A DNA stretch of 45,580 nucleotides from Thermoplasmata archaeon (GTDB lineage Archaea > Thermoplasmatota > Thermoplasmata > Thermoplasmatales > ARK-15): the NCBI GenBank assembly GCA_049967595.1, contig JBMFSK010000002.1, positions 1 to 45,580 on the forward strand, given 5' to 3'. Positions 1 to 33,378 of the stretch are shown here, piece after piece. Made by a program: the position numbers and the translations under genes. Below the pieces are notes generated by a model. The model made no database searches and was not told where the DNA came from. It saw nothing but the letters and a program-made list of their open reading frames with translations. Numbering within the stretch: position 1 is the first letter of the stretch; every line of letters begins with the position of its first letter.

Positions 1-7
1 TTATATT

Positions 8-199
8 ATGAAAAAAGAAGAGAATATGAATGAGGAAGAGAACTATTTTATAGAAAGAGGTCTCTGGCTTATGTTATTAAATATGTACATATCATATTAT
101 AAAATAAATCCAAAACATGATGTTATGAATAAAATAAATGAAACTGCAAAAAAAATGGGAATAGAATTTGAAAATTTATCTCTTCTGTTAAAAAAGTGA
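8..199 (+). CDS. hypothetical small protein (63 aa)
   Basis: ORF-track ORF only. It is Asn/Glu/Lys-rich with no recognisable motif, and may be a chance ORF in AT-rich DNA at the window edge. Confidence 0.25.
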   Translation: MKKEENMNEEENYFIERGLWLMLLNMYISYYKINPKHDVMNKINETAKKMGIEFENLSLLLKK

Positions 200-202
200 T
201 TT

Positions 203-1129
203 TTAAACTGGTTCTGGCTTTTTTTCTGCCTCTTTCTTTATTGATTTAATTTCAAAATAGCTTTTTACCATGCTCCAAGCACCTATGATTCCAACTACGG
301 TGATAACAAGAAGAAATCCCACATCTATAGCATTTAGGTTTGGAACAGAAACACCAGTGGATATGGCAAAATTATCTATAGATGGTAATAGAATGATTAC
401 CATACCTATCAATGCAAATGCAAGCCCTCCATAATAGAGAGTTCTTCCAGCAGTAGATTTACCAATGTATTTAATGTCATTATCATTCATCTTCATTTTC
501 CTCAGGAGAGTTCCGAAAACTGCACCTATTATAATCTGCATTACCATCGTACCTAGTCCAAACATAAGACCTGGCAATGGGGAATATATTACACTTGGAA
601 CCTGTGGTGCAAGTACAAACGTGATTATTGTGGCATATGCCCCAAATCCAAATCCTGCAATTAATCCATGTAAAATGGTCATTTTTAAAGGTATTTCCTT
701 TGGATGAACTTCTCTTGGAGATAATCTTGTGGCATTTTCTGTATGATGTGCCTTTCCACCTAACAGTTTATCAAAAGGAAGATGGAAATATTTGCCCCTT
801 AGAACATAGGATCCTGCTATGGCCATTACTATGCCAACGATCAAGTATACTGGTCCATCAAGATTATATGTCTTGTAAATATATGCAAGACCTATAAAAC
901 CAAGAAATGTTAAAAACGCCCTCTGTATTGTGAATCCTAATGAAAAGAGAAAACCTGCTTTCATTCCTCCTTTTGTACTGTAAGAACCCACTGCATAGCT
1001 AAAAGTAATCGGCCAGGTATGTTCATCCGGTGTTATTCCATGCAGAATGCCAAGTATGAATGATATAACAAGAATTTCCCACAAAACCAGATTATTGGGA
1101 GGACTAAGAAGAAAGGATAGAAAATCCAT
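203..1129 (-). CDS. polytopic membrane protein, putative metal-ion transporter
   Basis: 308 aa with about 8 hydrophobic segments, an HGITPDEHTW motif in the first TM region and a His-rich loop (GGKAHHTENA..HPKE). It lies 6 nt downstream of a DtxR/MntR-type regulator gene on the same strand. The metal substrate is inferred, not shown. Confidence 0.55.
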   Translation of the reverse strand: MDFLSFLLSPPNNLVLWEILVISFILGILHGITPDEHTWPITFSYAVGSYSTKGGMKAGFLFSLGFTIQRAFLTFLGFIGLAYIYKTYNLDGPVYLIVGIVMAIAGSYVLRGKYFHLPFDKLLGGKAHHTENATRLSPREVHPKEIPLKMTILHGLIAGFGFGAYATIITFVLAPQVPSVIYSPLPGLMFGLGTMVMQIIIGAVFGTLLRKMKMNDNDIKYIGKSTAGRTLYYGGLAFALIGMVIILLPSIDNFAISTGVSVPNLNAIDVGFLLVITVVGIIGAWSMVKSYFEIKSIKKEAEKKPEPV

Positions 1130-1135
1130 TTTTTA

Positions 1136-1594
1136 TCACCCCTTTAAAACTAGTTCCATTTTACCTGATTCCTTGCTTATTTTTTCATGCGGAATTTCTT
1201 TACCATGTGGGCAATAGTTAGGATGACCAAGAAGCTGGCAGACTGAATTTATAAATTCCTCCGTAACGTGATATTCCATCATTCTTGCATTTTTACAGGA
1301 ATTTTCTAAATCCATACCTAACTTATAAAGAAAAGTTTCAACTATCCTGTGATTCCTTTTTATTGTTCTTACGACTTGCTCACCTTTTTCAAGCAATTTA
1401 ATATTTCCATTTCTTTTTAAAATGTAACCTTTTTCCCGAAGATTGTCTAAATATTCTTCAGAAGTTGATGGCCTAACATTGAGATTTCTTGAAATTTCTG
1501 ATACATTTGGCTGCCATCCTTCCTGTGATAAATCGTAAATTGCCTGAAGGAAATCCAATTCTCTTTCGGTTAAACCTAAATTATTTAGATCCAT
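1136..1594 (-). CDS. DtxR/MntR-family metal-dependent transcriptional regulator
   Basis: N-terminal wHTH (LTERELDFLQAIYDL..ISRNLNVRPSTSEEYLDNLREKGYI). This is followed by the metal-binding/dimerisation region (RNHRIVETFL..LG..MEYHVTEE..LGHP..CPHG) typical of iron/manganese-dependent repressors. Confidence 0.85.
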   Translation of the reverse strand: MDLNNLGLTERELDFLQAIYDLSQEGWQPNVSEISRNLNVRPSTSEEYLDNLREKGYILKRNGNIKLLEKGEQVVRTIKRNHRIVETFLYKLGMDLENSCKNARMMEYHVTEEFINSVCQLLGHPNYCPHGKEIPHEKISKESGKMELVLKG

Positions 1595-1678
1595 ACGAAA
1601 TTGAAATAAAAACTGTTATTTAAATCTTGCTGATGAATTAAAAATAAAGTTAATATAAAAAAAAGAATTGTTTAAATT

Positions 1679-2743
1679 ATGAAAATTAAAGAAATAAGGA
1701 CCCAAGAATTAAAAATACCTCTTAAAAGGATATTTATAATTGCGTCTGGATCATCAGAATATTCCAATAATGTAATATTGAAAATAATTACTGATTCATC
1801 GACAGGATATGGAGAAGCTTCACCATCTATACACGTTTTAGGGGAAAACGCAGGAACAGTACAATCAATTGTACCAGTGTTATTTAACAAAATTAAGGAT
1901 TTCGAAGCGGGGGATGTACGTGACATATCAAAAGTATTAAAAAAAATACCTAATAACCAAAGTGCAAAAGCTGGATTGGACATTGCACTTCATGACCTTC
2001 TCGCCAAAGAATACAATGCACCGTTAAATAGATTATTAGGTACATCAAAAATTGCTATGGATACTGATATCACTATTGGAATAATGGATGAACAGGATGC
2101 TATAAATCTGGCAAGAGAATACATAAAGGAGGGTTTCAAATCAATAAAAATAAAGGTAGGAACAAATTTAAAGAAAGATATTGAAAGGGTGAAAAATATA
2201 AGATCTGCTGTAGGAGACAAAATAGAACTTAGAGTTGATGCGAATCAAGGCTATAATTATAACGAAGCAAGGGATTTTATAGATGAAACAAAGAAACTTG
2301 ACATAGAATTCCTAGAACAGCCTATGCCATATTATATGCTGGAAAAAATGGCTGAACTGAGAAAGTATTCACAGATTCCCATAATGCTCGATGAAAGTCT
2401 TAAAGATATCAGGGACCTTTATGAAATAATAAACAAAAAGGCAGCTGATATGATCAACATAAAATTGATGAAAACGTCTGGAATCACTGATGCACTTTCC
2501 ATTGCAGATTTGGCAAAATCATACGATTTAAAAATAATGGTAGGATGCATGGCGGAAACATCTTTGGGTATTGCAGCCTCAATGCATTTCGCATTGGCCA
2601 TTGATGCTGATTACATAGACCTTGATTCACACTTTAATTTGCAATACGATATTGCAAAAAATCCGATTAAAAATCTAAAGGGTAAAAATTATATTAACAA
2701 TGACTTTGGTTTGGGAATAAATCTTAAGGATGATTACATATGA
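1679..2743 (+). CDS. enolase-superfamily enzyme, MLE subgroup (dipeptide epimerase / OSBS-like)
   Basis: KxK motif (SIKIKVG), metal ligands in RVDANQGY, LEQP and MLDES, and a second catalytic Lys in NIKLMKTSG. At 354 aa the length fits L-Ala-D/L-Glu epimerase-like proteins. Confidence 0.85.
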   Translation: MKIKEIRTQELKIPLKRIFIIASGSSEYSNNVILKIITDSSTGYGEASPSIHVLGENAGTVQSIVPVLFNKIKDFEAGDVRDISKVLKKIPNNQSAKAGLDIALHDLLAKEYNAPLNRLLGTSKIAMDTDITIGIMDEQDAINLAREYIKEGFKSIKIKVGTNLKKDIERVKNIRSAVGDKIELRVDANQGYNYNEARDFIDETKKLDIEFLEQPMPYYMLEKMAELRKYSQIPIMLDESLKDIRDLYEIINKKAADMINIKLMKTSGITDALSIADLAKSYDLKIMVGCMAETSLGIAASMHFALAIDADYIDLDSHFNLQYDIAKNPIKNLKGKNYINNDFGLGINLKDDYI

Positions 2744-3291
2744 AAATAATAATTGGAATAACTGGTGCATCAGGAATCATTTATGCAACAACTTTAATAG
2801 ATCGGTTAAGAGAAGAGATATATTTAATTATTACAGAGAATGCGAAAAGAATAATGATATTTGAAACAAAAATGGACTATAAGACCCTTGAAAAAAAGGT
2901 AAATAAAATATATAACGACAGTGATTTATTTGCTTCAGTAGCATCTGGAAGCACAAAGTTTGATGCATTTGTTGTAATTCCTGCTTCTATGAACACCATT
3001 GCAAAATTTGCTAATGGTATTGCAGATACTCTAATAACAAGGGTCTTTTCCGTTTCGCTTAAGGAGAAAAGAAAGATCATTGTAGTTCCAAGAGAAACAC
3101 CATTGAATTCAATAAATCTTGAAAACATGAAAAAACTTTCTGATTTGGGAGTGGTGGTTATGCCAGCATCTCCAGGTTTTTATTTCAAGCCTAAGACAGT
3201 GGAAGATCTTGTTGATTTTATAGTTTATAGGGTCCTTGATCATCTGGGAATAGAGGGGGACTACCCAAGATGGGAAAAAAATACATTCTAG
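2740..3291 (+). CDS. ubiX: flavin prenyltransferase UbiX/Pad1
   Basis: MKIIIGITGASG N-terminus, then VIPASMNTIAKFANGIADTLITR and VVPRETPLN..MPASPGFY motifs. The start overlaps the upstream stop (ATGA). Confidence 0.9.
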   Translation: MKIIIGITGASGIIYATTLIDRLREEIYLIITENAKRIMIFETKMDYKTLEKKVNKIYNDSDLFASVASGSTKFDAFVVIPASMNTIAKFANGIADTLITRVFSVSLKEKRKIIVVPRETPLNSINLENMKKLSDLGVVVMPASPGFYFKPKTVEDLVDFIVYRVLDHLGIEGDYPRWEKNTF

Positions 3292-3737
3292 ACACATCCG
3301 TATTTTTATCTGGAAAATCCGTACCCATGGACATAGAAATAATAATACCTTACAGCGTGATAAATGAACTGAAAAATCAAAATAAATATTCATTTCTTCT
3401 TGAAAGATCAAAAATAGTAAGCCCATCTGAAATAAGTTTAAGAATTGCACAGGAAGCAGCAAAAAAAACAGGTGATATAAACAAGCTTTCAGAAACTGAC
3501 TTGGATATAATTGCTCTTTCACAGGAATTTGATGCTACTGTAATGACAGATGATTATGCGATACAGAACGTTTTAAAATTCCTAAACGTGCCTTACACAG
3601 GAATGGCAATGAAAGAAATAAAGGAAAATTTTAAATGGGTTTATAGGTGCACTGGCTGCAAAAGGTACTTTGATAAATATTACGAATCCTGTCCTGTGTG
3701 CGGTTCACCATTAAAATTAATAAAAAAGAAGCTTTAA
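3270..3737 (+). CDS. nob1: Nob1-like endonuclease (PIN domain plus C-terminal zinc ribbon)
   Basis: PIN-like N-terminus (YILDTSVF..DLDIIAL..MTDDYAIQN) plus a CxxC..CxxC ribbon (CTGCKRYF..CPVCGSP). Overlaps ubiX by 22 nt. Confidence 0.8.
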   Translation: MGKKYILDTSVFLSGKSVPMDIEIIIPYSVINELKNQNKYSFLLERSKIVSPSEISLRIAQEAAKKTGDINKLSETDLDIIALSQEFDATVMTDDYAIQNVLKFLNVPYTGMAMKEIKENFKWVYRCTGCKRYFDKYYESCPVCGSPLKLIKKKL

Positions 3738-3763
3738 ATAACATCTTTTAATTTGAGTAAAAA

Positions 3764-3835
3764 GGGTAGGTGGCAGAGTGGTGATGCGCGAGACTGCAGA
3801 TCTCGTTTAATGGGGTTCGATTCCCCACCTACCCT
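3764..3835 (+). tRNA. tRNA-Cys(GCA)
   Basis: Cloverleaf folded by hand. Acceptor GGGTAGG/CCTACCC, anticodon stem CGAGA/TCTCG with loop CTGCAGA, T-arm TGGGG-TTCGATT-CCCCA, discriminator T, no intron. Confidence 0.9.
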
Positions 3836-4562
3836 CTGCTATTTTTGATATTTCTCCGTACAGAAAAGAGAGAGACCGTAATGTCCAGTAATATTCGTAA
3901 AAACTTTTAGATGTTTTCAGATAATTAAATTCAAATCCATAAGACACATCCATCAATAAAAGATTCTCAGCTGGAACGTTAAATTTGCTCCCCTCAGTGA
4001 ATGGATTCCCTTTTCCATATGCTAGAAATCCTACGATACGTCGTACCATGTTCCACAGAAAGCTCTGACCCCAAATATCTATCACGATAAGATCATGATC
4101 TTTTTCTATCTCTATATTACTTATTTTTCTTAAAGTGTTTCTGTCATCCTTTCTTGAAAAAAGAGAGAAATCATGTTCTCCGATAAATAATTCTGCTTTT
4201 TTTTTCATATCATCCAGATTGAAATTTTGGTCTAAGAGAAAGTATCTGTACCATCTTTCCAAAGCATGCCTAGGTTTGAATCTATCATCAACAACCGTAT
4301 ATGAATAAAAAAGCATGAATGGCAATTTTGAATTTAAAATTCCTGCAATCTTTTTTATTTCATCTTTTGATATCAATCCTATAACATTACCAAGTGCACT
4401 AACATTTCTATCAGTTCTACTTGAAATGTATATCCTGTCTGAAATATTGAATGCCCTTGTTACTTTTAAAATTTCACCTTCAACCGTTTTTCTGTTTTTT
4501 TCCATAGAAAATGCGTCAAACTTCGTTCCATCGTAAGCAAATTTTATCAAATACACGGTCAT
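3807..4562 (-). CDS. truA: tRNA pseudouridine(38-40) synthase TruA/Pus
   Basis: FAYDGTKF N-terminal motif and catalytic-Asp motif SSRTDRNVSALGNV. The 3' end runs 29 nt into the convergent tRNA-Cys gene. Confidence 0.85.
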   Translation of the reverse strand: MTVYLIKFAYDGTKFDAFSMEKNRKTVEGEILKVTRAFNISDRIYISSRTDRNVSALGNVIGLISKDEIKKIAGILNSKLPFMLFYSYTVVDDRFKPRHALERWYRYFLLDQNFNLDDMKKKAELFIGEHDFSLFSRKDDRNTLRKISNIEIEKDHDLIVIDIWGQSFLWNMVRRIVGFLAYGKGNPFTEGSKFNVPAENLLLMDVSYGFEFNYLKTSKSFYEYYWTLRSLSFLYGEISKIAEGRWGIEPH

Positions 4563-4598
4563 GAAATCTTTTTATAGTATTTAAGCATTGATTATTTA

Positions 4599-5051
4599 AT
4601 GAAATATAAAATTCCTGATAAAAAGCTAATCTCTTTTATTATTAAAAAAATAATTAGGGAAAAAAAGGTAATTAAATCGCAGAAAAATTTTCTTGAATAT
4701 GTTTTAAGCGAACTAAAAAGCTCTGGTATAGATTACAGACTTGACGGAAAAAGATTGAGAAGCATTGCCATTAACAATTCTAGATTGAAAATAGAAATAA
4801 AATATAGGGAAAGCGACGAGGAATCAAAAAATTTAAAAACTTGCCCTGTATGCGGTAATAAATTAATAGACATAAAAAATTCCACTCTTTACGGAGAAAC
4901 CGTATTTTCTGGAAAGAAATGTACAAAATGTCCTTATTGGACTGGCCCGAAAAAAAAGATACCAAGGAGATATATATTCTATGGAGATGAAAATTATGAT
5001 AAGCAAAAGATTTGGAAATATGATAATAGCAAAGCTGGAAAAAAACGATGA
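4599..5051 (+). CDS. hypothetical zinc-ribbon protein
   Basis: 150-aa basic protein with CPVCG..(25 aa)..CTKCP (a four-Cys ribbon). No family recognised. Confidence 0.5.
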   Translation: MKYKIPDKKLISFIIKKIIREKKVIKSQKNFLEYVLSELKSSGIDYRLDGKRLRSIAINNSRLKIEIKYRESDEESKNLKTCPVCGNKLIDIKNSTLYGETVFSGKKCTKCPYWTGPKKKIPRRYIFYGDENYDKQKIWKYDNSKAGKKR

Positions 5052-5406
5052 TGTATTTGAAAGCATCGAAAATCTCATTGATGAATACATTATAAAAGGT
5101 GGAATCATAGTTTCTGGCGTGGGAATGTTAAAAAATTTTGAAATAGGCTACTGGAATGGAAAAGAATACGAAAAAAAGGTTATTGAAAAAAACCACGAAC
5201 TTGTTTCAATGCATGGAAGTATAGCAGAAAATGATCCAAAGATACATATTCACGTTGGCCTTGCAGGGCCAGATCATTTTCTTATTGGAGGACACCTTAT
5301 AAGTGCAAAAGCCGATCCAATGGTAGAATTGACAATTCTAGAAACAGGCCTTCCAATACAAAGGGTTTTCAATGAAAAAACTTCATTAAAAGAAATGAGT
5401 TTTTAA
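4981..5406 (+). CDS. PPC/DUF296-domain protein
   Basis: IAKLEKNDDV..L..GGIIVSGVGML...HGSIA...IHIHVGLAGPDH.LIGGHL pattern typical of the PPC (DUF296) fold. The start is uncertain: in-frame ATGs at 4981/4987/4996/5020 all overlap the upstream ORF. Confidence 0.7.
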   Translation: MEMKIMISKRFGNMIIAKLEKNDDVFESIENLIDEYIIKGGIIVSGVGMLKNFEIGYWNGKEYEKKVIEKNHELVSMHGSIAENDPKIHIHVGLAGPDHFLIGGHLISAKADPMVELTILETGLPIQRVFNEKTSLKEMSF

Positions 5407-5409
5407 ACT

Positions 5410-6090
5410 ATGTTCATTTTATATTTAATTTTGTTTCTATTGACTTTATTTTTTTTATCTTATTTCCTAAAGATACTTGATTTAAAAGGATCTATATTTG
5501 CGTTCATTATTGGTTTCACCGTTTCATATTTAGGATCCTTGTATTTCTTGATTCTTTTGATTATTTTTGTTGCTTTATCATTTATTGCTACAAAATACAA
5601 GCATTCAAAAAAGGAGAACATTAAAGGCTTTGAAAATACAAGGTCTTGGAAAAGTGTTCTATCAAAAGGCGTAATACCTTTTATTTTGGTATTTTTACCT
5701 GTAAATTTTATTTACAAGGAGGTAATATTTTCTGTTGCAGTTGCTGCAGCTACATCTGATACAATTTCAGGAGAATTTGGGGTTCTTTCCCAGAATGCAT
5801 ACTATATAACAAATTTAAAAAAGGCTAGACCAGGTGAAAACGGAGCTGTTTCACCTATAGGAGAGATATGGGCGCTCATAGGCTCACTTATTATAGCTAT
5901 TTTCTCTTTAATATTTTTTGATATTAGCATTTATGGATTTTTACTAATTTTAGTTTTTGGTTTTTTAGGAAGCCAGTTTGACAGCACCCTAGGGTCCTTT
6001 TTTGAAAATAAGGGTAAAATAAAAAAATTTACGGTAAATCTCGTTGCAATAGGGTTAAGTATAGTTTTTGCATATGTCTGTTTGCTATGA
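5410..6090 (+). CDS. DUF92/TMEM19-family integral membrane protein
   Basis: Six to seven TM segments and a central AAATSDTISGEFG motif resembling the DUF92 signature. Confidence 0.65.
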   Translation: MFILYLILFLLTLFFLSYFLKILDLKGSIFAFIIGFTVSYLGSLYFLILLIIFVALSFIATKYKHSKKENIKGFENTRSWKSVLSKGVIPFILVFLPVNFIYKEVIFSVAVAAATSDTISGEFGVLSQNAYYITNLKKARPGENGAVSPIGEIWALIGSLIIAIFSLIFFDISIYGFLLILVFGFLGSQFDSTLGSFFENKGKIKKFTVNLVAIGLSIVFAYVCLL

Positions 6091-30866: not shown

Positions 30867-30966
30867 CCTAATCGATTCTATTTTACTTGAAACTCAATAC
30901 ACATCTTATATATGATTGTTTCGGAAAATTTTTTTAAAATTTATAAATTTTACTTAAAATCATCAG

Positions 30967-31052
30967 CGCCGGGGGGGAGATTTGAACTCCCGCTCCCCTT
31001 TCGGAGAACAGGCTCTCCAGGCCTGCGCCTTGGCCAGCTCGGCTACCCCGGC
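30967..31052 (-). tRNA. tRNA-Ser(GGA)
   Basis: The reverse complement folds as acceptor GCCGGGG/CCCCGGC, anticodon stem CAGGC/GCCTG with loop CTGGAGA, a long variable arm (TTCTCCGAAAGGGGAGC) and T-arm GGGAG-TTCAAAT-CTCCC. Confidence 0.9.
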
Positions 31053-31077
31053 TTTATACCTTTAAGGTAAAAGGCAC

Positions 31078-31083
31078 ATATAA
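31078..31083 (-). promoter_or_regulatory. putative TATA box for tRNA-Ser(GGA)
   Basis: TTATAT on the minus strand, centred about 28 nt upstream of tRNA position 1 (31052), which is the expected archaeal spacing. Confidence 0.45.
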
Positions 31084-31107
31084 TCTTTCCTTTTGACCCT
31101 TTTTTGC

Positions 31108-31178
31108 ATACAAAATATTACAAATTTTCCATTAAGTATTACAATATTCTTTTGAATAGAATACAACATGTATTACAA
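31108..31178 (+). repeat. five phased ATTACAA/ATACAA direct repeats (candidate operator or centromere-like iterons)
   Basis: ATACAA at 31108 and 31161; ATTACAA at 31117, 31138 and 31172. The ACAA cores are spaced 10, 21, 22 and 12 bp apart, roughly integral helical turns. Confidence 0.4.
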
Positions 31179-31277
31179 AGTATGGCAATAAATTTTAAAA
31201 ATTTTTTATCAAAATATTTAAAATAAACATATTAAAGAATAATTTTATAATAAAATAAAGAAGTAATAATAATTAAT

Positions 31278-31293
31278 TTTTGGTATTTTGGTA
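31278..31293 (+). repeat. tandem TTTTGGTA x2 abutting the putative promoter
   Basis: A perfect 8-nt tandem duplication (31278-31285, 31286-31293), 4 nt upstream of the TATA-like element. Confidence 0.35.
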
Positions 31294-31297
31294 GAAA

Positions 31298-31310
31298 TTT
31301 TTATATATTA
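31298..31310 (+). promoter_or_regulatory. putative TATA box of the RHH/FtsZ-like operon
   Basis: TTTTTATATATTA lies about 60 nt upstream of the ATG at 31366. A strong Shine-Dalgarno AGGAGG sits at 31351-31356, 9 nt before the start. Confidence 0.4.
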
Positions 31311-31365
31311 AAAAAAGCATAACTTCTGTTAGAGCCACTGGTCCTATCCCAGGAGGATATATAAA

Positions 31366-31797
31366 ATGAAAACAGACACAAAGATATCTTTAAGAATCAG
31401 TCAAGTAGAATTGGATAACATAGATGATTTCCTAGTAAGACATCAGGAATTCAAAACAAGATCAGATTTTATCAGATATGCAACAATGAAACAACTTGAA
31501 TTAATGGAAAAGGGTCAACAGTTAGATGAAGAGATTGTTCCAATAAAAATAAATAAAAAGTTTAAGTTAATATTTAGTGATCTTGTAGATATTAATCTAT
31601 TCTCAAGCATTGATGAAGCAGTTAACTTTTTCCTTGAAAGATCAGTTCAGACAAACAAGATGAATGAGGAATTATCAACTTTGATGCAAGGATTTGTATC
31701 ATTGGATAAACTGGTAGATAACTACAAAATTTACCAAGAGGATAGGGCAACCAGCCGGATAAAAAAGGAAAAAGGTGATTTTCGTGATAGAAAATGA
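31366..31797 (+). CDS. ribbon-helix-helix (CopG/CdrS-like) DNA-binding protein with a probable second RHH repeat and a charged tail
   Basis: Residues 5-48 (KISLRISQVELDNIDDFLVRHQEFKTRSDFIRYATMKQLE) fit the strand-helix-(T/S)RS-helix RHH pattern. Residues 57-95 (VPIKINKKFKLIFSDLVDINLFSSIDEAVNFFLERSV) repeat the pattern. The C-terminus is Lys/Asp/Arg-rich. Confidence 0.7.
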   Translation: MKTDTKISLRISQVELDNIDDFLVRHQEFKTRSDFIRYATMKQLELMEKGQQLDEEIVPIKINKKFKLIFSDLVDINLFSSIDEAVNFFLERSVQTNKMNEELSTLMQGFVSLDKLVDNYKIYQEDRATSRIKKEKGDFRDRK

Positions 31798-32587
31798 TAA
31801 AGAAACAATTTTCAAAGGAATGATGAAAGAATGGCTAGATCCGCCTTACATACCAGTGATTGCATTTGGAGGTGCTGGAGCCCATTTCCTGAAATCTTTC
31901 GAAAGATTACTTTCAATATACAAAAATGAAAATGATCCCGAAGATTTCTCAAATATATTTACTATGTATGTCAATACCAAGCAAGAAACATCGATGGATA
32001 CATTTCCATTTTCAAAGACCGTATTGATTACAAATTCTGTTTTAGGTTTACACAGTGATACTAATGGATATGTAGAAGTTGGAGAAAAGATAGTTGAGGA
32101 TAACTTTGATGATATATTCAACACTTATTCTGGAAAAATATCTATTAACCTGAGAAAGGCAGATGCAGTAGTATTAGTGGCAGCTTTTGGTGGTGGAATG
32201 GGAACAGGTGGTATTAAAGAGGCTATAAAATTGATAAGTTTAGATTTCCCATCTTTGCCAATATTTCCCGTGATTGTAATGCCTTTTTCATTCGAAAACA
32301 GAGGTATAAATTTAAAGGATGAAATTGAAGAAGTGTTGAAAGTAGATAAAAAACCAACAGTTATTAAAAATTCAGAATTTTTACATCTTGAAGAAAACAA
32401 AAAAATGAAATTTTCTGATTTACTGGAGGAAATAAATTACAATGTTGCTAAAAAGATTATAGACATAATACTCCATGTAAAAAATGAGAAAGAGAATGTT
32501 TTTAAAGAATTGTATGGAAAAATATTCGAAGAAGAATTCCAAGAGGCGGTATCAAGCCAGTACATAAAAGAAATAAAAACATTTTAA
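31775..32587 (+). CDS. FtsZ/tubulin-superfamily GTPase-domain-only protein (no T7 loop or C-terminal domain)
   Basis: IPVIAFGGAGAHF (G-box 1; compare FtsZ VGxGGxGxN) and VLVAAFGGGMGTGGIKEA (tubulin signature GGGTGTG, nt 32189-32212). Also VIVMPFSFENRG (FtsZ T5 PFxFEG) and a helix H7-like FSDLLEEINYNVAKKIIDIILHV. The protein ends about 35 aa later. The start is ambiguous: GTG 31775 or 31784, ATG 31820 or 31823. Confidence 0.75.
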   Translation: MIFVIENDKETIFKGMMKEWLDPPYIPVIAFGGAGAHFLKSFERLLSIYKNENDPEDFSNIFTMYVNTKQETSMDTFPFSKTVLITNSVLGLHSDTNGYVEVGEKIVEDNFDDIFNTYSGKISINLRKADAVVLVAAFGGGMGTGGIKEAIKLISLDFPSLPIFPVIVMPFSFENRGINLKDEIEEVLKVDKKPTVIKNSEFLHLEENKKMKFSDLLEEINYNVAKKIIDIILHVKNEKENVFKELYGKIFEEEFQEAVSSQYIKEIKTF

Positions 32588-32613
32588 ATTTTATTTTCTT
32601 TTTTGAACCTATT

Positions 32614-33378
32614 ATGAAAATAAATGATCTTGATTTAAACAACTGGAAATCATATGATGATATTTTAACTGATTCTCTATGGATATTTCCAAACAGAGAA
32701 AAGGGGTATACAAGAAATGGTGAATACCACGGAAATTTCATACCACAAATACCAAAACAGGCAATCTTAAGATTCACTAAAAAGGGTGAATGTGTTCTTG
32801 ATACTTTTGCCGGTCTAGGTACATCATTAATTGAGGCAAAGCTGTTATTCCGAGATTCAATAGGTATTGAAATTTCAAAAGAAAATATATTAAAAATTGA
32901 AGAGGTTATTAAAAATACACCAGGGGGAGGTAACCATAGAGTTATCCTTGGAAATGCAATGGATCGTGCTTTATACGGAGGGATGCAAAAAATACAGCTA
33001 GCAATTTTACATCCCCCATATTGGAATGCAATAAAATTCACCGACGATGAAAATGATCTATCAAATGCTAAAGATATAAATGATTTCTTAAATATGTTCT
33101 CTAAAATAGTAGAAAATGTATCATTAGTACTTGAATCGAAAAGATATTTAGTTCTTGTAATAGGGGACATATTCAGAAAAGGAAACATCGTACCTTTAGG
33201 ATTTCTAACAATGAATGAGGTTTTGAAAAAAAATTATACTTTGAAAGGAATTGTTGTAAAAAATATTGAGGAAAACAGAGGAAAAAGAGGAAAATATTCA
33301 TTGTGGCGTTATAGAGCTCTACTTAATGGTTTTTATATATTCAAACATGAATACGTATTCTTTTTCAGAAAAAAATAA
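32614..33378 (+). CDS. SAM-dependent N6-adenine/N4-cytosine-type methyltransferase, motif order I then IV, no adjacent restriction gene
   Basis: HGNFIPQIPKQAILRFTKKGECVLDTFAGLGTSLIEA matches the AdoMet-binding half of the beta-class N4/N6 methylases (H.A.FP..L....I....GD.VLDPF.GSGTT). The catalytic motif LAILHPPYW (nt 33010-33021) follows rather than precedes it. Confidence 0.7.
   Translation: MKINDLDLNNWKSYDDILTDSLWIFPNREKGYTRNGEYHGNFIPQIPKQAILRFTKKGECVLDTFAGLGTSLIEAKLLFRDSIGIEISKENILKIEEVIKNTPGGGNHRVILGNAMDRALYGGMQKIQLAILHPPYWNAIKFTDDENDLSNAKDINDFLNMFSKIVENVSLVLESKRYLVLVIGDIFRKGNIVPLGFLTMNEVLKKNYTLKGIVVKNIEENRGKRGKYSLWRYRALLNGFYIFKHEYVFFFRKK

Follow-up and report, generated by a model that had tools for sequence, protein, structure and literature searches.

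What is an FtsZ paralogue reduced to its GTPase domain doing directly behind a DNA-binding protein, next to a tRNA gene, in an otherwise ordinary stretch of archaeal housekeeping genes? The question is raised by 45,580 nucleotides (nt) of the Thermoplasmata archaeon assembly GCA_049967595.1 (lineage ARK-15; contig JBMFSK010000002.1, positions 1 to 45,580; hereafter the window), in whose AT-rich housekeeping region a ribbon-helix-helix (RHH) gene is followed by a gene for a short FtsZ and by a DNA methyltransferase gene. A preliminary description of the window had read these three genes as one module, either a diverged division-control locus or a domesticated segregation or filament-capping module of plasmid or virus type. 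Judging from the loci compared here, the conserved unit is instead a two-gene pair, RHH protein plus short FtsZ, that has been vertically inherited across the heat-loving Thermoplasmata, with the methyltransferase as an accessory neighbour outside it.

The answer matters for several reasons, as the control of FtsZ-based division in archaea is poorly understood and CdrS-FtsZ2 is among the few regulatory links known. The pair is a candidate new division regulator in a whole archaeal class and a data point on the remodelling of the tubulin superfamily, and a half-FtsZ that is strictly paired and strongly constrained would be a natural test of what an isolated FtsZ N-domain is capable of, be it capping, sensing or heteropolymerising. 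It matters for annotation as well, in that databases label the two proteins "hypothetical protein" and "ribbon-helix-helix domain-containing protein", the short-FtsZ family is misannotated, and its members may be counted as FtsZ in genome surveys, distorting presence-absence maps of FtsZ1 and FtsZ2. A GTPase-domain-only FtsZ paired with an RHH protein in Thermoplasmata is absent from our full-text searches and from the main surveys of the archaeal tubulin superfamily, and the pair appears to be a previously undescribed form of the RHH plus FtsZ-paralogue arrangement; the preliminary description, too, knew of no described system with this architecture.

A two-gene pair conserved across Thermoplasmata

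The genes in question and their divergent neighbour are as follows.

30966 to 31052, minus strand: tRNA-Ser(GGA), called by ARAGORN and Rfam; divergent neighbour, outside the operon
31366 to 31797, plus strand: RHH gene, 143 amino acids (aa), predicted tandem-RHH DNA-binding protein
31774 to 31778, plus strand: Shine-Dalgarno sequence GGTGA of the FtsZ-like gene, 5 nt before GTG 31784
31784 to 32587, plus strand: short FtsZ paralogue, 267 aa, GTPase domain only
32614 to 33378, plus strand: orphan DNA methyltransferase, type II-like, N6/N4 class, 254 aa

All sequence-level statements of the preliminary description could be located in the window where it had placed them, among them the overlap of the RHH stop with the start region of the FtsZ-like gene. 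That overlap is 14 nt with one correction, namely that the FtsZ-like gene most likely starts at GTG 31784 and not at 31775, because its homologues all begin with MIE or MID at that point and GGTGA lies 5 nt upstream. No second FtsZ-family open reading frame (ORF) was found within the window.

Evaluating the neighbourhoods of homologues (L-numbers denote retrieved loci, P-numbers protein representatives from a profile search) revealed that every locus retrieved via either gene carries both on one strand, the RHH gene immediately before the short FtsZ gene, the sole exception being L036, which lies at a contig end. The two genes overlap, usually by 10-20 nt, or stand up to 178 nt apart, and the pair is single-copy per locus and syntenic. 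It occurs in ARK-15, in metagenome-assembled genomes (MAGs) of DHVE2/Aciduliprofundum, in other Thermoplasmata and on metagenome contigs without taxonomy, within at least 7 different flanking contexts (upstream tRNA-Ser/S19e, Fe-ADH, TGT, a pterin-binding enzyme, DNA ligase or SCP2; downstream dph2, aEF-1beta, DCD and others). Pairing persists down to about 20% identity of the FtsZ-like protein: the short FtsZ of DHVE2-type contigs (P0034) is paired with an RHH protein at 36% identity, P0035 and P0058 are paired with RHH proteins recognised by profile (E 4e-26 and 2e-15), and P0062 is likewise paired. The preliminary description had asked for a census of whether an RHH gene plus a roughly 270-aa FtsZ-like gene recurs with or without the methylase; the pair does recur, and the methylase accompanies it in two of five ARK-15 sublineages.

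The short FtsZ belongs to a family of graded divergence. An exhaustive profile search of 1.84 billion representatives gave 358 matches, with three below 1e-30 followed by a tier of short (230-290 aa) FtsZ-like proteins, 20 of which share one architecture and can be aligned over their full length. Length and end point are kept in more than 25 distinct sequences from several orders. Scores on Pfam Tubulin run from 127 bits (P0062) down to 22 bits (P0035), with the less diverged members at 56-127 bits, and by this measure the window protein is a member of a fast-evolving branch. A broad-profile protein search was dominated by bacterial FtsZ and returned no named cultured organism. For the cultured Aciduliprofundum boonei, a genome scan returned MAGs only, which does not show that the pair is absent there, as the scan needs exact peptide patterns.

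Purifying selection on both genes is strong. Compared with its counterparts in the two closest relatives, the short FtsZ gene of the window differs at a proportion of 0.12-0.17 of nonsynonymous sites (pN) and 0.66-0.76 of synonymous sites (pS), giving a ratio of nonsynonymous to synonymous rates (dN/dS) of 0.05-0.12. The RHH gene is tighter still (pN 0.07-0.12, dN/dS about 0.05). With the comparison gene dph2 at pN 0.20-0.23, selection on the pair is as strong as on dph2.

The short FtsZ keeps the nucleotide pocket and lacks the T7 face

The FtsZ-like protein had been described as a GTPase-domain-only homologue of FtsZ/tubulin, and profile and structure comparisons agree in placing it in that fold. 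The window protein matches Pfam Tubulin (PF00091) at 34.0 bits, with a gathering score of 33; TIGR00065 ftsZ, whose cut-off is 295 bits, is matched at 28 and over no more than model positions 18-206 of 353, and FtsZ_C (PF12327) is not matched even at E<=1. A profile of seven orthologues run against PDB matched FtsZ, CetZ and Asgard tubulin only (best E 3.4e-7). The AlphaFold2 (AF2) model (pLDDT 75, pTM 0.77) shows an FtsZ N-domain followed by a single helix at 210-266, and in a Foldseek search with this model all 50 of the 50 best PDB matches were FtsZ or CetZ (CetZ2), at E 7e-9 to 1e-7 and probability 1.0, with template-modelling (TM) scores of 0.56-0.60 over about 210 columns. The model is matched less well by viral tubulins (PhuZ, phage FtsZ) than by cellular FtsZ.

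Within this half-fold the nucleotide pocket is the most conserved part. Its conserved motifs are GGAG (T1; FGGAGA), NTKQ (T2), a T3-like LGxHxDTxGxxEVGE and GGGMGTGG (T4), to which PFSFE..R and the N of the T6 region can be added; among the 20 aligned members positions G29/G30 (T1), N64, G95, G136-G140 (T4), P167, F168 and E171 vary hardly or not at all. The T7 loop (NxDxxD) and the C-terminal beta domain occur in none of the 20, and the region past H7 is a continuous helix in the AF2 model. This last helix holds a conserved acidic stretch (IFEEEF in the window protein, VEEEY in DHVE2). The window protein ends ...SSQYIKEIKTF, lacking both the linker and the archaeal GID motif, the C-terminal FtsZ motif that binds SepF (PMC8178401).

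P0062, the least diverged short FtsZ, has lost the beta domain but still ends in a proline-rich linker and the peptide ...SNGFINLG, which recalls the C-terminal tail of FtsZ and suggests stepwise loss within the family. In P0041 (826 aa, metagenome) a single chain holds two complete FtsZ units one after the other, both with T4 and T7 motifs, and a Q/P-rich linker connects them. In P0038 (357 aa) the C-terminal part of a DHVE2-type short FtsZ follows an unrelated N-terminal stretch of about 170 aa with an HD-like motif, and this fusion may be genuine or an artefact of assembly or gene calling.

A probable tandem RHH protein

The product of the first gene can be divided into the following parts.

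aa 4 to 48: RHH unit 1
aa 57 to 95: RHH unit 2
aa 99 to 136: helices
C-terminus: conserved tail KGDxxDR

Unit 1 is the better documented, with Pfam RHH_8 (PF17723) matching aa 4-47 of the window protein at E 9e-4, under the gathering score, and the isolated unit at E 2e-4. The same model is matched by all nine aligned homologues (best E 1.3e-5), with the family scoring weakly to moderately overall, and conservation along the protein is highest at residues 4-48, where 28 columns are invariant in nine sequences down to 34% overall identity. The closest PDB sequence match is the RHH of HicB3.

The preliminary description took the protein for a single-chain double RHH, an idea indirectly supported by the distant homologue L054, in which unit 2 scores as a Pfam RHH. 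Pfam gave no match for unit 2 on the C-terminal 89 aa of the window protein. The L054 homologue aligns to the RHH family profile over both units (E 5.5e-14), and its unit 2 matches RHH_8 at E 5.6e-6, above gathering, with a weak RHH_1 match too. Aligning the two units to each other by hhalign was uninformative with close homologues alone; with 19 diverse homologues they align in register over 41 columns, strands matching strands and helices matching helices, at an E of 0.046, which is weak. The AF2 monomer (pLDDT 66, pTM 0.33) places two extended-helix-helix units at 4-48 and 57-95 ahead of the helices at 99-136, and Foldseek of this model returned only non-significant ParD matches (unit 1, E about 7). 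Taken together, a single-chain double RHH is likely, not proven. Homologous genes encode 123-178 aa, and the tail KGDxxDR, with variants, is kept across ARK-15 and in some distant members.

The methyltransferase is an accessory neighbour

The methyltransferase gene begins 26 nt past the FtsZ-like gene and its assignment is clear (Pfam N6_N4_Mtase E 6e-19; PADLOC MTase_II E 6e-98; PDB 2zie E 1.6e-10). It had been described as lacking a restriction partner, and indeed no nuclease gene was found adjacent to it, its neighbours being the FtsZ-like gene and dph2. Its place in a three-gene module did not survive the comparison of loci. The gene fills the slot between pair and dph2 in two ARK-15 sublineages (the window with L001-3, and L008-10/L025-27) and is missing in L004-5, L006-7 and L011-13, that is in 3 of 5 ARK-15 sublineages, and in all DHVE2-type loci. 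An ancestral but dispensable gene fits this pattern, because the copies of the two sublineages are 64% identical, above the flanking short FtsZ (40%) and dph2 (52%). The enzyme's S-adenosylmethionine-binding motif FAGLGT (about aa 65) precedes its catalytic motif HPPY (aa 133-136; usually D/N/SPPY), a motif order permuted relative to TTHA0409 and the best PDB relative 2zie.

Conserved elements in the spacer and promoter

Between tRNA-Ser(GGA) and the RHH start lies a spacer of 313 nt (31053-31365), which had been called the longest in the window; its size holds, and "longest" is plausible, as the two other large gaps that we checked contain ORFs. The elements recognised in it, and in the second spacer behind the pair, are these.

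31076 to 31095, minus strand: conserved block ACATATAATCTTTCCTTTTG, kept in the window, L001 and L004 directly upstream of the tRNA 5' end
31108 to 31189, plus strand: distal cluster of units of about 10 nt (ATACAA, TATTACAA three times, TATGGCAA), candidate operator or iteron array
31278 to 31293, plus strand: TTTTGGTA tandem directly upstream of the promoter element, candidate proximal operator
31294 to 31307, plus strand: putative archaeal B recognition element (BRE)/TATA-like element (AGAAAT TTTATATA), with AAATxTTTAWATAT in all ARK-15 upstream regions
31318 to 31327, plus strand: conserved block CATAACTTC(T), at or just 5' of the predicted transcription start
31352 to 31356, plus strand: Shine-Dalgarno sequence GGAGG of the RHH gene, kept in all ARK-15 loci
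32588 to 32613, plus strand: T-rich spacer ATTTTATTTTCTTTTTTGAACC..., the 26 nt between FtsZ-like gene and methylase

The five helically phased ATTACAA/ATACAA repeats of the preliminary description are present, with copies beginning at 31108, 31117, 31138, 31161 and 31172, and they are joined by a sixth related unit, ATGGCAA, beginning at 31182. The six units comprise three TATTACAA, two ATACAA and one TATGGCAA, and their ends are 10, 21, 22, 12 and 10 nt apart, a roughly helical spacing. The exact 8-mer TATTACAA has 3 copies in 63 nt of the spacer against 8 on both strands of the whole 45.6-kb window, where 4.5 are expected. Related units recur upstream of homologous pairs, with GTATGACA and GTATGGCAA in tandem about 190 nt before the start codon in L001 and L004, tandem AATACAAAATGTAATACAATGTATGACAC and GTATTCCAATGTATGACAT at about -190 in the two closest relatives, and TATGACAA or TATGGCAA units at -95 to -76 in DHVE2-type loci, often tandem or palindromic. 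Such units are enriched (18 observed against about 3 expected, for a pattern picked after inspection), and their recurrence suggests a footprint without proving one.

Nearer the gene, the tandem that had been noted at the promoter is exact in the window, but outside it only in L001. Its first TTGGTA is kept in all ARK-15 loci and the second copy has decayed to TTGATG or TAATGA in other sublineages, such that by alignment the conserved feature is a single TTGGTA beside the BRE/TATA element and not the TTTTGGTA tandem. All ARK-15 loci have the same order of elements, namely TTGGTA(W)TT, AAATxTTTAWATAT, CATAACTTYA and a leader ending in GGAGG, and the 10 nt of CATAACTTYA are invariant across sublineages with coding sequences 40-55% identical. 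The leader itself (GGxCCTRTCC...GGAGG; window 31318-31356 region) is conserved in all ARK-15 loci, and together with the CATAACTTYA block it may serve as an operator, or form a leader structure in which the ribosome-binding site is hidden.

The ACATATAATCTTTCCTTTTG block is probably the promoter region of tRNA-Ser, and the T-rich 26 nt behind the pair could be an oligo-T terminator for the pair, the TATA element of the methylase, or both. A bacterial-type promoter and terminator scan matched no terminator, a result that is uninformative since its models are bacterial and the host is archaeal. An Rfam scan of the window found tRNAs only.

Housekeeping surroundings and the tRNA-Ser gene

Around these elements the minus-strand genes upstream of the spacer are eIF6, L31e, L39e, a small DNA-binding-like protein, S19e and tRNA-Ser(GGA). 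On the plus strand the spacer is followed in order by the RHH protein, the tubulin/FtsZ-like protein and the methyltransferase, with dph2 and purN downstream of the methylase. An identical tRNA-Ser sequence stands upstream of the RHH gene in L001, L004, L006, L011, L012, L017, L018, L020, L021 and L035, most ARK-15 loci keep tRNA-Ser(GGA) beside the pair in divergent orientation, and tRNA, pair and dph2 are syntenic across ARK-15.

The preliminary description had raised the possibility that the locus is mobile-element cargo, with its position beside a tRNA gene as a sign, and neither suggestion is borne out. With the short FtsZ as query, tblastn gave no match among 50,697 phage and 72,556 plasmid records, and IMG/VR pattern scans with both families gave none either; the pair lies in conserved synteny with housekeeping genes and is itself under strong purifying selection, and the tRNA-Ser gene is a conserved neighbour rather than the scar of an integration. 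From the distribution across loci, tRNA-Ser is an integration site for an unrelated element and the pair is resident.

That element, about 5.6 kb long, is an island beyond tRNA-Ser(GGA) as seen from the pair, present in L011 and L013 (positions 1-5619 of each), with a very large ORF in addition to genes for a tyrosine integrase and an AAA_10 ATPase; L012, with an identical RHH gene and pair, is without it. Other traces look like transposon remains around the conserved block, namely a 66-aa Cas12f1-like TNB fragment after dph2 (L026:7378-7578) and a DDE transposase fragment near the locus (L004:9178-9415). Gene dph2 lies one to three genes downstream of the pair in ARK-15 and also in the very distant L049 (4888-8578), where a pyridoxal-phosphate decarboxylase and Kae1-Bud32 follow as well; this linkage is probably old synteny.

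Possible functions of the pair

Our own reading, to which we give somewhat less than an even chance, is that the pair is a Thermoplasmata offshoot of the archaeal RHH(CdrS)-ftsZ2 division locus, in which an autoregulating DNA binder would be combined with a GTP-binding half-FtsZ that modulates or caps other proteins, because gene order and chromosomal, vertical inheritance are the same as in cdrS-ftsZ2. The product of the first gene (130-180 aa), made up of two putative RHH units in one chain, a helical region and a short, charged, conserved tail, would bind the repeated sites or conserved blocks of its own promoter and thereby set expression of the pair, and possibly of other genes. The second gene, which appears to be translationally coupled to the first, would supply an FtsZ paralogue of 240-290 aa with pocket T1-T6 and H7, in which one long helix is predicted in place of the C-terminal domain and the catalytic T7 loop, and which would bind GTP. 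In FtsZ filaments the nucleotide face of one subunit contacts the T7 loop of the next. The half-FtsZ would present the "top" nucleotide face without the "bottom" T7 face, and no normal head-to-tail filament is to be expected from it because the T7 face is missing; it may instead serve as a GTP-dependent partner that joins and caps or modulates canonical FtsZ filaments, or that forms complexes with the RHH protein. The DNA target, autoregulation, GTP binding, the cell-division link and capping are what we infer from the sequence, and the structural and evolutionary description is much firmer than this functional reading.

Several observations weigh against the offshoot reading. The PDB profile matches show no preference among FtsZ, CetZ and Asgard tubulin (33-24 bits), and the acidic patch in the terminal helix might replace T7 and so permit self-assembly. 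CdrS is a short, single RHH of about 55-60 aa, whereas the RHH protein here has 143 aa with two units and a helical region of about 45 aa, and its low-confidence AF2 model (pTM 0.33) has no beta-ribbon or paired strands. FtsZ2 is full-length, whereas the FtsZ here is half-length, without C-terminal domain, T7 loop or SepF-binding tail. The distal repeat units are absent from two ARK-15 sublineages, the L008 and L011 groups. Finally, a published table gives 2 FtsZ and 2 SepF matches in the ARK-15 MAG and 5 FtsZ-family matches in Aciduliprofundum sp. MAR08-339, and one of the tabulated FtsZ matches could be the short FtsZ itself.

A bolder version is a long shot, namely that the pair is a spatial regulator of the Z-ring, with the RHH protein on chromosomal sites holding or releasing a half-FtsZ that caps canonical FtsZ via its GTP face. 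If true, a nucleoid-occlusion-like or division-timing device would have been made from a truncated filament protein, and we know of no such half-FtsZ regulator of the Z-ring in any domain of life.

Among the alternatives, a GTP-sensing transcription switch apart from the cytoskeleton, with the half-FtsZ tuning the DNA binding of the tandem RHH protein by GTP level, would suit a protein that has kept the nucleotide pocket best and lost its filament-forming half, and the strict translational coupling suggests a stoichiometric complex. A tubulin-fold domain acting as transcription co-factor has no precedent known to us, which counts against the switch and leaves us thinking it unlikely.

Quite unlikely, too, is a chromosomal DNA-segregation module of the TubZRC/ParMRC type, in which the RHH protein would be the centromere adaptor on the repeats and the GTPase the motor. 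Its attraction lies in the order of repeats, adaptor and NTPase, the same as in tubC-tubR-tubZ (the gene order of TubZRC), in the tandem units of about 10 nt upstream, and in the conserved C-terminal tail of the RHH protein, comparable to the partner-binding tails of the ParR type. The NTPase, however, has neither the C-terminal domain nor the T7 loop on which head-to-tail polymerisation and GTP turnover depend, the phage, plasmid and IMG/VR scans found no plasmid or viral relatives, and the repeats are few (2-6), partly conserved and missing from the L008 and L011 groups. The plasmid- or virus-type segregation option of the preliminary description is weak, the NTPase being without the half of the fold that makes one of the two filament contacts.

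We doubt that the pair is a toxin-antitoxin-like division inhibitor, in which the half-FtsZ would act as a toxin on FtsZ rings under stress and the RHH protein, as antitoxin or autorepressor, would hold it in check. The layout is classic type II (RHH gene first, overlapping second gene, promoter repeats), RHH unit 1 weakly resembles ParD antitoxins at a Foldseek E (about 7) that is not significant, and the best PDB sequence match is the HicB3 RHH. Yet the pair is single-copy, syntenic and vertical across the whole class, purifying selection on it equals that on dph2, PADLOC found nothing credible and no match above noise for either protein, and the phage, plasmid and IMG/VR scans placed neither on mobile elements.

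Very improbable is mobile cargo inserted at tRNA-Ser with the methylase as part of the island, for which the adjacent tRNA gene, the integrase island at the same tRNA in L011 and L013 and the general fact that orphan methylases and RHH proteins are common mobile cargo could be cited, since that island lies on the opposite side of the tRNA and is absent from L012 with its identical pair, tRNA, pair and dph2 are syntenic across ARK-15, and viral or plasmid relatives did not appear in the scans. A decaying remnant of a full-length ftsZ, suggested by a protein about 100 residues shorter than FtsZ, is excluded by the conservation and selection data, with length and end point constant in more than 25 distinct sequences from several orders, dN/dS of 0.05-0.12, and no remnant of the C-terminal domain downstream, where the methylase or dph2 comes next.

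Comparison with known systems

The plasmid partition systems TubZRC (type III) and ParMRC (type II) resemble the locus in uniting a repeat array, a DNA-binding adaptor and an NTPase of cytoskeletal fold in one small operon, and ParR is an RHH protein with a partner-binding C-terminal tail. They differ in being plasmid- or phage-borne with complete, polymerising NTPases, whereas the pair sits among chromosomal housekeeping genes with half a fold, and TubR is a winged-helix protein, not an RHH. TraY of F-like plasmids, a relaxosome accessory on conjugative plasmids, is a natural tandem RHH and shares with the window protein the two RHH units in one polypeptide, but no sequence relation beyond the RHH fold was seen.

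Among truncated or divergent tubulins, FtsZl1 and FtsZl2 are divergent families of the superfamily (Makarova and Koonin 2010, PMC2875224). Neither the T6-H7 region nor the canonical C-terminal domain can be recognised in FtsZl1, a family founded on a protein of 1051 aa and made up mostly of members that combine a coiled coil with a different C-terminal domain. The C-terminal region of FtsZl2 spans about 300 aa, and the operons of both hold vWA, GTPase and OmpA genes (PMC2875224). We rejected membership in either family for the short FtsZ, with its 240-290 aa, its H7 kept and its neighbours RHH, methylase and dph2.

A likeness of another kind is to proteins that act on FtsZ filaments. MciZ, SulA and engineered one-face FtsZ mutants are end-cappers or inhibitors of FtsZ, and SlmA and Noc are DNA-bound antagonists. 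A protein with one functional longitudinal face would be expected to cap a filament, and a DNA-binding partner could localise the capping; to our knowledge, none of MciZ, SulA, SlmA or Noc is a natural half-FtsZ or is encoded with an RHH protein.

The closest parallel, by arrangement, is the one the preliminary description had named, cdrS-ftsZ2. In archaea ftsZ2 is usually found next to an RHH_1/ParD-like gene (PMC9871819; PMC8178401), and in Euryarchaeota the RHH regulator CdrS is co-transcribed with FtsZ2 (PMC7439475, PMC8406309), haloarchaeal cdrS being needed for, and controlling, division (PMC7439475). Here as there, an RHH gene lies directly upstream of an FtsZ-family gene on the same strand, probably co-transcribed with it, in a chromosomal and vertically inherited archaeal locus.

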